From positions 1 through 53,331 of the forward strand of contig JAEOTO010000027.1 of assembly GCA_016839805.1 (NCBI GenBank): 53,331 nt of DNA, written 5' to 3'. The notes under the pieces are model-generated. The model was not told the origin of the DNA. It was given only the letters and a program-made list of their open reading frames with translations, and did no database searches. Numbering within the stretch: position 1 is the first letter of the stretch; each line of letters begins with the position of its first letter. The stretch comes from Candidatus Hermodarchaeota archaeon (GTDB taxonomy: Archaea > Asgardarchaeota > Hermodarchaeia > Hermodarchaeales > Hermodarchaeaceae). Shown piece by piece: positions 3,573 to 53,331 of the stretch. The position numbers and the translations under genes are program-made.

Positions 3573-6500
3573 CTAGCTAGCCTTTGGTTCAGGTTCTTTC
3601 TTCCGTCGGCGTATTAGTACAATGATTATGACCAACAGTAAGAGTATGACCAGGACAAGGGCAATGAGCCACCAGTTGTTTATAAGCCATTCAAGAATAT
3701 TGGGAGGTGGCGAAGTAACCGTTGTTATTGTAAAGATGGTTGAGTCACTCCACCCAATTCCATCGACATCCTCGAAATAGCAGCGAACAAAGTAATCCCC
3801 ATCAGCAAAAGTTGCCGTTGAGATATCGAGTATTTGCCAGGAATTCGTTGAGGTATCCCAGGAAAGATCGCCATAAGTAATGTTAGTGGTCCCTAGAAAG
3901 ATAGAATACGTATGTCTTGTAGCAGAAGTATCAGTCAAGATGTTATGGGTGGGACATTGAGCTGTAACACCTGTTATGTCAAGAAGGCGAAGAGCATTAT
4001 CATGGTTGACTGTGATTCCACTCACGGTAAGTTGTTGGGCAAAAGTGATGCTACCCTCATATGGGCTGTAATTGTGTTTCGTAACTGTAACATCCACTGT
4101 TGTAATAGCGGAGATTGAGATAGAAAAGGTGACATTCCCTGACGCATCTGTAAGTCCAACCTGATAGGTATGTGTACCACTAGAAGTCTGCAGACAAACT
4201 AAGGCTCCTGGAATTGCTACACCACCAGTAGTCTCTACATGAATGACCACTGAACCTGGTGTGGTAGTAGTCGGGTGAGATACTGTCATCGGTGCAGGAT
4301 TGGCAGTGAAGATATCGACTTCAGGGTCACCAAAGAGGGCATAGCTGAGAAGATTCTTGCGGTCATAGGTTTGCCACCAGCTCATATATGAGGGATTTGC
4401 CTGATACCATGGCCACAATGTTGCATTATACAATGCCTTACTATCATACAGTGTTTCTCCAGGTCGATAGTGTGTCCTGCCACTGAAGAAGAGATCCCAG
4501 AACATGTAACTCTGATTACGGCTAAGCCCCCAAGCATAAGAATTAGCCATGGGTCCCCGTTGATACCAACAGACCCGCATGGAACCCACATACCCAATTG
4601 CTTGGCTCATTAGAAAACTAGTTGCTAGGCTGCCTTGATAATAATCAAAGGCCCCAGTAAGGCAGGAATCAGTGTAAATTAATGGTGGGACATTTGATTG
4701 TTCGCTAATCGCCTGAACACTGTCGATGAAAGTACTCCACACGAACCAATCCCATTCATACCAATCGAGTTGTCCAGCATGCATTGTTCCTGCAGCGATT
4801 TCTCGATCGATGTTTATGTCATTGCTTGTCATTTCTCCATAATAGTAGCTTAACTCACCAGTATCAAGTGCTGATACATTGTTACTGAGAAGGCTTGGGA
4901 TGCTGACGTTGTAATAATCAATGAAGCCATGTGTGCTATTAGTGTGGTATTTCCGTATTGATGGGTCGCCGGTTCCTACGATGATACTATTTAGAGGTGG
5001 AGTTCCGCCGTGAGGATATCTATTTTGATCGACGTAGTCGATGCGAAGACAATAGACACCCTGAATATTTCCAGAGGCTTCGACTTGTTGTGGGGGATCA
5101 GGAAATACTTGGGATTCGAAGGTGTAGATAGCACCGTCTGAACAGCCAATTGCTATCTCATTAGAACCGTCGTTTTCGGCATCGCCAACATCAAGGCCTC
5201 GAACTTGTCCACCAAGACCCCAGTTAACTGTTACAAATCCCCAGTTGGGTGGAGTATATGTCCACAGATGTACGTCACCATCGAGATTCCCTAAGATATT
5301 CGTATACCCGGTGCCGACGGTGATTTCGCCTAGAGCATCATCGTCTGGATCGCCCACATCAATACTATAAATGGCAGCAGGCGCATGAGATCCTACGGGC
5401 CAAACGTTTGAGGTCCCCGCAGGCGTTCCTGTCGCGGCGAAAATAGAACCACTACGATGTCCCCAAGCGAGGTCCACATTTACACCAGGAGTATCTGTAA
5501 TTTCATCCAAGACATTATCCGCATTCCCAAACTCAATACAAAGTACAGGACTTGGGTACGCGTGAACCTGGTGCCGAGTCCAAGCTTGCGAGGGACGATG
5601 GAAATAGTAGACATAAGTGAAGCCCAGTAGTGTTCCAACAGCAACACATTGAGAACCATTATTCCAGAAATCACCAATGTCAACACAAGTTGGAAAATCT
5701 GGAAAAAGAGAATCGATTAGAATTCCTGTTTGAAATCGACTACCATTCAACATTACGACGTTGCCAGCAGCTGGCGAAAACCCATGAGTATACACAATTT
5801 CATTGTCAATGCCATCATGATCAGCATCGCCAATCGCTACTCCGGTGATATTACCGATTAACAAAGGTACCAGATTAAATCGTCGCCCATAGGGGTAAGA
5901 AGACGACCATGGGAAAAGTTGGTCATCATCATACTTTCGTTGAATGTCAATGGGACTACCATGCCCAGCGATGTTAATTAGGGCAGGTGAGAAGTAATTG
6001 AGGTATTGTCCAACTGCGGTGTTATTTAAGGGAACATAGGTATTTGTCGGTGTATAATCCCAGAAGAGGTATCGGGATTCATAAAGCCGAGCAGTTGTAT
6101 AGGTCCCAGGAATGATATTATCATCGAGCCAGTCACTCAATTCAGCTTCGTCGGTGTAATCATTGTTATCGTTCCATGCATTAACTTCTTCATCATAGTT
6201 GCTAATAGCTCCGGCTAATAAGAACCGGTCCCAACCCGTTGTTGCATATCCTGTGGGATAGCGTTCATACGAGATTGCCCGTTGTAATATAGTTCGAATC
6301 ATCAATTCGTCACTAAGGGGAATGCGTCCAACGTAAAGATCTGGTGCCCAATCTGAAATCTCATCTGTGCCAATAACGCCGCCTAGATTATGAGTCGTAC
6401 ATTCACCCCAGACGCCATCATTATCATCATCCCAATCATTATCATGCATTACCGAATAATAGAAATCCGTGGGTTTGAGTGTGGCACTGAGATTGGTCCA

Positions 6501-15646: not shown

Positions 15647-15838
15647 CGTGTATCGCCTCGGAATAAGTGAGGCGACTAGTCACAAATCCCGCTTAAAAGT
15701 GTGTAGTTCGCTAGACACCGTCTCTCCCGGTATATGTGTTCAGTCATCTATGACTGCGGAATCCAAGTATATACCTTTATATTTCACCAACGGATATACA
15801 TAACTGGACTGGTCCTAGCGTTACTTAGTGTCGAGTGG

Positions 15839-15945
15839 TCACTGGAGCGGCGAGAAGTGTTGGCACCTCTCCCCCCCTAGAAAACCATTCCCTCTCCGAT
15901 GTTTTCATTATTGTCGAGGTGTCTAATCCGCCAAAGTTCCAGTGA
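15839..15945 (+). repeat. Dispersed structured element, copy 1 (candidate ncRNA with BHB/BHL-like motif)
   Basis: Shares a 26-nt exact core (CCCCCCTAGAAAACCATTCCCTCTCC, 15872-15897) and flanks with 53214-53331. Nested stems are TCACTGGAGC/GTTCCAGTGA, GGCG/CGCC and GGCACCTC/GAGGTGTC. Confidence 0.8.
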
Positions 15946-51035: not shown

Positions 51036-51539
51036 ATGGAACAAGCTAGGTTTAATCGAAATCAAAGCATCGCCGTGATGGCGATTATGTCCGCATTATA
51101 TGCGGCTGTGACTATTGTTTTGGGACCCTTTAGCTATTTAGCTGGAATCAACTTTCGCGTTGCAGATGTCCTCTTACCATTTCCTTTCATTCTCGGATGG
51201 CCCATGGCCATTGCATTATTCATTGGAGGTTTTGTCGCCAATATCTTTGGTGGATTGGGTCCAATTGACATCGTCTTTGGAAGCCTGCTAAATTTGCTAG
51301 CCGGTATTCTTGTTATGAATCGAAAAACTTGTCCGCACTGGTTCTTCGCATGGTTATATCCCACACTGATTATTGGATTTGGGGTACCTGCATACCTGCA
51401 ATTCCTCTTCTTCACACCCTACATTCTTATCATGCCAGAAATTCTACTCAGTACGGGCCTCCTCTCTGCTATCGGCGTAATTGTAATGTTTGCAGTAGAG
51501 AAGGCTCTGCCACAGATTTTTAAAAAACCAACCAAATAA
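51036..51539 (+). CDS. queT: QueT family ECF transporter S-component (predicted 7-deazaguanine precursor transporter)
   Basis: ALYAAVTIVLGPFSY...INFRVADVL, IGGFVANIFGGLGPIDIVFGSL and a P-containing later helix are typical of QueT. Confidence 0.8.
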   Translation: MEQARFNRNQSIAVMAIMSALYAAVTIVLGPFSYLAGINFRVADVLLPFPFILGWPMAIALFIGGFVANIFGGLGPIDIVFGSLLNLLAGILVMNRKTCPHWFFAWLYPTLIIGFGVPAYLQFLFFTPYILIMPEILLSTGLLSAIGVIVMFAVEKALPQIFKKPTK

Positions 51540-53106: not shown

Positions 53107-53213
53107 GAAACACCAAACGCCTGTTTGCTTAAACTTTTTTGACCGTAAAATAGTATATAAAGCAGCTCAAACGGAAGTCTTTAAATAACAAAAATGGGCG
53201 CTAATATTGGGAA

Positions 53214-53331
53214 CACTGGGTTTGGCGAAAGATCTTGGCACTTCCCTCCCCCCTAGAAAACCATTCCCTCTCCCCTCCAATTGTGTCCTTAATTGGACAA
53301 ATGTCCTTTTCTTGGAGGTGCCTAATCCGCC
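53214..53331 (+). repeat. Dispersed structured element, copy 2 (runs off the window end)
   Basis: Same 26-nt core at 53248-53273; stem GGCACTTCC/GGAGGTGCC; GGCG-AAA-GAT pairs with ATC-CGCC; TTTAAATA box at 53180-53187. Confidence 0.8.

Follow-up and report, generated by a model that had tools for sequence, protein, structure and literature searches.

The two copies of a short repeat in this stretch of archaeal DNA raise the question of whether non-tRNA transcripts could be excised by the tRNA-splicing endonuclease (EndA), closed by the ligase RtcB, and kept as stand-alone circular RNAs. The window, i.e., the whole stretch of 53,331 nt that was analysed, is the entire contig C15 of a Hermodarchaeia (Asgard) genome (designated G000; assembly of 2.3 Mb, 87% complete). 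Throughout the window, Rfam gave no match at the gathering score and ARAGORN found no tRNA. Copy 1 is flanked by genes for an acyl-CoA dehydrogenase and an H+-pyrophosphatase, and a CoA-ligase gene precedes copy 2. Exact matches to the repeat in named genomes were all from Hermodarchaeia, Ca. Hermodarchaeum yapensis among them. The window also contains a queT gene (51036-51539), whose product QueT was confirmed by Pfam, with no Rfam match at the gathering score.

Copy 2 (paralog A, plus strand) contains the bases on which the original prediction of a bulge-helix-bulge (BHB) motif was built, namely the central helix GGCG (53224-53227)/CGCC (53328-53331), the 5' bulge AAA (53228-53230), and the inner helix GAT (53231-53233)/ATC (53325-53327). 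The window ends where contig C15 ends, and an exact 127-nt overlap was found with the start of the contig C10 minus strand. Downstream of 53331, where a 3-nt bulge followed by a complementary strand had been anticipated, C10 reads ATT and then ATACCCAGTG, which pairs with 53214-53223 at 9 of 10 positions, with one U.U. Direct pairing of TTT with AAA, the arrangement that was to speak against a bulge, does not occur in the C10 sequence. Copy 2 is a complete, canonical 3-4-3 BHB. The join between the two contigs is backed by synteny, since the next gene on C10 corresponds to the gene that follows copy 2 in five relatives (87% identity in the closest one and 53-64% in four more).

In the outer helix of copy 2, the 5' arm (53214-53223) is matched by a partner on the C10 minus strand at about 102741-102750, and the 5' half of the BHB occupies 53224-53233. 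The 3' strands (53314-53331) comprise the inner stem (53314-53322), the inner helix, and the central helix, followed on C10 by the bulge ATT. A TATA box (53180-53187, TTTAAATA) lies 44-45 nt upstream of the central helix in type-A copies with a correctly registered BHB, and the usual archaeal spacing predicts a transcription start near 53209. According to the BHB rule, the 5' bulge would be cut after 53229, and the predicted circle would extend from 53230 to 53331 and include AT beyond the window end. Within it, the 5' stem strand and 5' loop (53237-53267) are followed by an overlapping set of loop elements. A pyrimidine-rich core of 26 nt (53248-53273) is the same in copy 1, and a 15-nt part of it is identical in 49 of 50 copies. 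A 12-nt loop seed (53272-53283) was predicted by folding to be unpaired with values of 0.8-0.95 in most copies and 0.63 in copy 2. An optional insertion hairpin (53289-53306), present in 7 of 13 aligned type-A copies, can partly mask this seed in the predicted folds.

Copy 1 (paralog B, plus strand) has a relaxed form of the same motif, as had been claimed. GGCG (15849-15852), AGA (15853-15855), CGCC (15929-15932), the bulge AAA (15933-15935), and a 10-bp outer stem were all confirmed, and the first inner pair is A.C, which is common to all 13 class-B copies. The hairpin spans 15839-15945 on the plus strand, with outer arms at 15839-15848 and 15936-15945, and its folding z-score is -5.0. A TATA box (15776-15782, TTT(A/T)TAT) is located 73-77 nt upstream of the central helix in all type-B copies; transcription is predicted to start near 15806, and the circle expected from this copy would cover 15855-15934.

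The enzymes for such processing are encoded in the genome. The EndA alpha subunit (contig C26, 186 aa) has the catalytic Tyr/His/Lys motifs and an L1/CSL-like insert (GKPLGIRKPK), and both the beta subunit (198 aa) and RtcB are encoded on C22. Asgard (alpha-beta)2 EndA enzymes bear an L1/CSL insert, which permits the cutting of relaxed motifs (PMC5829648), and an insert of such broad specificity fits the A.C pair fixed in class B. Moreover, EndA products serve as RtcB substrates, as in the case of tRNA introns and the Thermoproteus SRP RNA (PMC4731332). The four copies in the genome would yield circles of 104 nt (copy 2), 80 nt (copy 1), and 81 and 86 nt (the other two). Under the BHB rule, the sizes and junctions originally proposed for copies 1 and 2 are right, the two bases left open in copy 2 being AT. 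The predicted junctions are CGCCAT joined to AGATCTTGG in copy 2, CGCCAA to AAGTGTTGG in copy 1, TGCCAT to TATTTAGG in the copy on C42, and CGCGAT to AGATCTG in the copy on C21. Metagenome contigs scanned for the junction, which are DNA assemblies, gave one chance match only. On sequence grounds, an RNA circle is likely to be produced by EndA cutting and RtcB ligation.

Beyond the window, the element was detected by BLAST in 18 of 18 genomes of the family, and two covariance models recovered about 75 copies in total, with two to five per genome in 19 of 19 Hermodarchaeia genomes. Five paralog classes could be distinguished in Hermodarchaeia: A (copy 2), B (copy 1), C (on C42 in the genome studied), D (C21:59454-59570), and E, which is not assembled in the genome studied, where four copies (A-D) are present. 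Synteny across species showed that each class occupies one or two fixed intergenic loci with unrelated neighbours, and in classes A, B, and C a TATA box is found at a distance that is constant within each class and particular to it (a sigma-70 promoter scan is inapplicable to archaea). In addition, a single-copy relative with a BHB, a TATA box, and a C/U-rich loop was found in 4 of 4 Baldrarchaeia genomes, one instance being cut by a contig end. In other Asgard families sampled among 150 genomes (the best 24 candidates per genome), the covariance models gave nothing convincing except one match in genome G066 (L163:1495-1595, plus strand, E 5e-4). This match, from another Asgard family, is a BHB-closed hairpin with a C/U-rich apical loop; it sits between a methyltransferase-like gene and a TFIIB gene and was not found in the two relatives of its genome. 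The core had no match in viral contigs, and nothing in Rfam matched the family with E values of up to 1. All classes share just one motif, a short C/U tract.

By itself, a single BHB carries no significance, since a genome-wide scan for BHB-like geometry gave 53 matches compared with 51 in the reversed sequence (copy 2 ranking first and all four copies of the genome being listed); the case thus rests on conservation. The 3-4-3 spacing, which had been expected to recur in other copies, is indeed conserved in the five Hermodarchaeia classes and the Baldrarchaeia relative, with covariation. Among 50 aligned copies, the central helix is paired in 193 of 200 cells, all four central pairs are present in 44 copies, and both bulges begin with A in all 50. 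A 3' bulge of 3 nt gives 77% Watson-Crick pairs in the outer helix, compared with 40% or less for other bulge lengths, and a 5' bulge of 3 nt gives 91% inner pairing, compared with 49% or less. Across 27 copies from six classes, two-sided changes were observed at all 16 BHB pairs, and pairing reached 85% versus 63% in shuffled copies and 32-48% in slid registers. The outer arms are 44-46% identical versus 99.7% for the core (50 copies). Since the arms vary but stay paired and the core is nearly invariant, the conserved product appears to be the excised piece rather than the ligated flanks. Moreover, the plus strand is favoured by the excess of G.U over A.C in the outer helix (34 versus 13), the TATA boxes, and the handedness of the BHB. 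The element is a real, undescribed RNA gene family.

Two copies in a second Hermodarchaeia genus (L034:1496-1603, plus strand, and L057:1478-1584, minus strand) keep the invariant loop, but their BHB is replaced by an unbroken stem, suggesting that circularity is not essential in every copy. They may be read as natural non-circular variants. Elsewhere in the genome studied, at G000 C48:4436-4580 (plus strand, in L174), a TATA box is followed by a long hairpin that encloses a C/U-rich loop, with neither a BHB nor an Rfam match. This hairpin may represent a linear relative or else a small RNA of its own.

Several identities and partners were tried and rejected. The SRP, 5S, and RNase P RNA genes are present in normal order on C22 and share no words with the element beyond chance, which excludes a permuted form of any of them. 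A tRNA intron or a permuted/split tRNA was discarded because the exons, once ligated, would give a short hairpin of variable sequence and neither a D arm nor a T arm is present in the circle, and a box C/D or H/ACA guide because no box C occurs in the four circles, antisense tests were not significant, and no Rfam match was found. A MITE or mobile repeat does not agree with ends that are the least conserved part and with syntenic loci. Complementarity of the loop to Hermodarchaeia 16S, 23S, 5S, SRP, RNase P, and tRNAs was no better than that of shuffles (p 0.19-1.0), and an antisense role towards 16S/23S was dropped, the best duplex (16S h21-h23 region) being no better than with shuffled loops; 16S is not assembled in any of the four Baldrarchaeia genomes. 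General pairing of the loop to start regions was not enriched above shuffled loops, and a position-matrix test of an anti-SD/anti-AUG design was weak, with an uncorrected p of about 0.02 for two of the seven loops. On C46, a papain-like gene that at first resembled a strong 5' target had no orthologue in 18 relatives with that query. Complements of the core outside the elements were heterogeneous and occurred at the control rate, and no target was found for classes D and E or the Baldrarchaeia RNA.

What appears to be new here, besides the Baldrarchaeia relative, is that two parts of the predicted circle are complementary to recurring non-coding sites. The exact complement of the 12-nt loop seed, a recurring UTR motif (CAATTGGAGGGG), occurs at 23 non-self sites in 19 genomes versus about 4.4 expected under a Markov model, and 22 of these sites are non-coding. 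A one-mismatch search gave about 42 non-self matches versus 8 for a reversed control pattern. The sites were picked by exact match and form five orthologous groups (three in 5' UTRs, one in a 3' terminator hairpin, and one intergenic), whose members are not independent and correspond to about 5-7 independent cases. In the 5' UTR groups, the site lies approximately 30-40 nt upstream of a start codon with its own SD. The G-rich strand is the mRNA sense, variant sites differ by G.U-compatible changes, and the upstream flanks are only 25-50% identical in four of the five groups. On the other hand, complementarity to the loop does not account for the extra bases (GACC) conserved at the sites, one group is placed with a terminator on one side and a promoter-like box on the other, and several sites adjoin AsnC-type HTH regulator genes and contain the palindrome CAATTG. 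The genome studied has no exact non-self 12-mer and offers only three 5' UTR candidates of 11-14 bp, with no genome-wide enrichment. A 5' leader on the minus strand of G000 C23 (near 8829) can pair with the loop over an uninterrupted run of 14 bases (including one G.U), and this run overlaps the SD of a short ORF of about 48 codons.

The other site emerged from three weak model matches, which were rejected as paralogs of a putative 'class F' because they are the reverse strand of the region where a stand-alone gene for an oppB-type permease has its 3' end. A 31-nt block that starts 0-10 nt past the stop codon is complementary to the 5' stem strand and 5' loop of the circle (53237-53267 in copy 2). 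This block is present in 4 of 4 second-genus genomes (-55 to -58 kcal/mol), with divergent sequence on its far side. An opposite-strand U-tract precedes the block in three of the four, which would favour the G-rich strand as the transcribed one. The genome's own oppB orthologue (C31, site 4900-4923), with a pairing of 22 bp, ranked first among 1825 3' windows for circles A, B, and C. In the genus of the genome studied, the site follows a hairpin and is degenerate in four of eight loci and missing in four of eight. Mismatches in the oppB site are not of the wobble type, and the site could be a decaying inverted copy.

The mechanism proposed would begin with a TATA promoter that yields a 130-190-nt precursor, the ends of which would fold into the BHB. 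The (alpha-beta)2 endonuclease would cut both bulges and RtcB would circularise the 77-108 nt enclosed by them, with the variable outer arms serving as a disposable scaffold. The ring, predicted to consist of one stem and a large, mostly unpaired C/U-rich loop, may act in trans, forming base pairs with G-rich sites that lie in the untranslated regions of mRNAs. Its 12-nt seed would bind 5' UTRs beside or over ribosome-binding sites as well as some 3' terminator hairpins, and a block of roughly 30 nt would bind the 3' end of the oppB-type peptide-permease mRNA. Circularity would shield the RNA from exonucleases. Transcription, cutting, ligation, and pairing in the cell with its effect are steps that we infer from the DNA itself. 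The complementary non-coding sites suggest trans-acting antisense regulation. If the circle is granted, an antisense function seems rather probable, and antisense regulation may be regarded, with roughly balanced confidence, as the best-supported function. The whole account, comprising a stand-alone RNA gene, an EndA/RtcB circle, and trans antisense regulation, would stand an even chance of being correct. A wider reading is advanced tentatively, with slightly less than even confidence: dedicated genes for circular regulatory RNAs would exist in Asgard archaea, tRNA splicing would be a general circularisation cassette, sibling antisense RNAs would control mRNAs via 12-nt UTR seeds, and the oppB 3' region would be a target or a sponge.

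Other explanations have to be weighed against antisense regulation by a circle. The circle might be made and work by binding KH-domain or Sm-like proteins through its C/U tracts, in which case the UTR 12-mer would be bound as DNA by a transcription regulator and the oppB site would be a relic. Such a role, which is considered unlikely, would agree with a short C/U tract as the only motif shared by all classes, and a DNA site would agree with the AsnC-type HTH genes, the palindrome, the extra conserved bases, and the group upstream of a promoter-like box. However, it would then be a coincidence that the site is exactly complementary to a stretch of the loop that is both unpaired and invariant. 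Moreover, the 5' groups are oriented with the mRNA, other sites are located in 3' terminator hairpins, the variants are compatible with wobble pairing, and conservation of the oppB block in all four second-genus genomes while its flanks diverge argues against a relic. It is less likely still that the RNA is a linear hairpin, with a BHB that stays uncut or is cut only for trimming or degradation and leaves no stable ring. The exact 3-4-3 spacing and A-starting bulges in nearly all copies, those of Baldrarchaeia included, argue for cutting, and RtcB takes EndA products such as tRNA introns and the Thermoproteus SRP RNA (PMC4731332). On the other hand, the relaxed inner side of class B, the two copies lacking the BHB, the BHB-free C48 hairpin with its similar C/U loop and TATA box, and the missing junction in assembled metagenomes (those being DNA) are consistent with a linear form.

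The multi-copy nature of the element might also point to a DNA-level repeat (a MITE or protein-binding site), and in classes A and B the minus strand spells SD-ATG-GTT-TTC-stop, i.e., a mini-ORF with an RBS and Met-Val-Phe-stop. Both are largely refuted and highly improbable: the loci are fixed across species, covariation occurs without terminal sequence conservation, the TATA boxes and BHB handedness fit the plus strand only, and the A-run has 3, 4, or 5 bases depending on class, so the frame is not kept. It is equally improbable that the RNA assists rRNA or tRNA as a snoRNA-like guide or chaperone, or that it is a housekeeping RNA in permuted form. An invariant loop would suggest an invariant partner, yet the complementarity to rRNA, SRP, RNase P, and tRNAs stays at the level of shuffles, box C and Rfam matches are lacking as described above, and the 5S, SRP, and RNase P genes lie elsewhere in normal order.

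Among known systems, the SRP RNA of Thermoproteus tenax provides the precedent for a stand-alone RNA circularised through a BHB: it is a permuted, circular RNA from a stand-alone gene with a TATA box, whose leader and trailer form a BHB that is cut by a heterotetrameric EndA, the circle being the mature RNA (Plagens et al. 2015, PMC4731332). The Asgard family likewise consists of stand-alone TATA-box genes closed by a BHB, with a predicted circle. However, the T. tenax RNA is a rearranged universal RNA in one copy, whereas the Asgard family has five paralog classes of 77-108 nt with neither SRP features nor Rfam resemblance, and a normal SRP RNA is present in the genome. Archaeal BHB introns include a C/D guide in the tRNA-Trp intron, and the circle there is a by-product. 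With such introns and with pre-rRNA processing stems, the Asgard family has in common the 3-4-3 motif, the predicted enzymes, and a circular product. Unlike them, it has no tRNA or rRNA host and no C/D boxes, and its flanks are short, variable arms, which implies that the 'intron' is the conserved product.

In terms of function, RNA-257(1-4) of Sulfolobus solfataricus is a set of intergenic paralogs with their own promoters and a conserved core; they act in trans and can pair with the 3' end of the mRNA of a transporter whose gene is one of a convergent pair (Martens et al. 2013, PMC3674436). The Asgard family is similar in having promoter-bearing intergenic paralogs, a conserved core, and complementarity to a transporter 3' UTR, which is patchy within the genus studied. 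On the other hand, RNA-257 is a transposon remnant limited to one species (PMC3674436) and is not known to involve a BHB or a circle, whereas the Asgard family spans a class and extends to Baldrarchaeia, no transposase was seen among the neighbours and partial matches examined, and short-seed sites form a second class of targets. In its processing, the Asgard RNA would resemble tRNA introns or the Thermoproteus SRP circle; it probably works like RNA-257, and it is a member of neither type. Bacterial sibling sRNAs (CcsR/'cuckoo' RNAs, RsaE, and RNAIII) are multi-copy and use an unpaired C/U-rich anti-SD loop to pair with G-rich mRNA leaders. These are linear, bacterial, and devoid of a BHB, and the Asgard family shows no sequence or Rfam match to them.

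To our knowledge, BHB-made archaeal circles are either by-products (tRNA introns and pre-rRNA) or repaired housekeeping RNAs (Thermoproteus SRP), and almost no regulatory RNAs have been described in the Asgard lineage. The literature searched contained no description of the Asgard family and no gene family dedicated to a small regulatory circle. If confirmed, the family would provide a defined base-pairing function for a circular RNA in a prokaryote of the lineage closest to eukaryotes, as well as a natural counterpart of engineered circular RNA expression based on tRNA splicing. The exact junctions and target sites supplied here could be tested with existing sediment metatranscriptomes and purified enzyme.

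Other features of RNA processing were also noted in these genomes. Several Hermodarchaeia 16S rRNA genes (L088, which is G006:C71; L089; and L092-L093) are split by long insertions, probably rRNA introns, and span 3.6 kb in G006, and the 16S rRNA gene of G016 is uninterrupted. In the genome studied, ARAGORN reported a tRNA-Trp (at about C24:4041-4185, the contig number being uncertain) with a 68-nt intron bearing CTGA and GATGA-like boxes, in keeping with the C/D guide known to be encoded in this intron. Introns occur in many other tRNAs as well, indicating that EndA is clearly in use.
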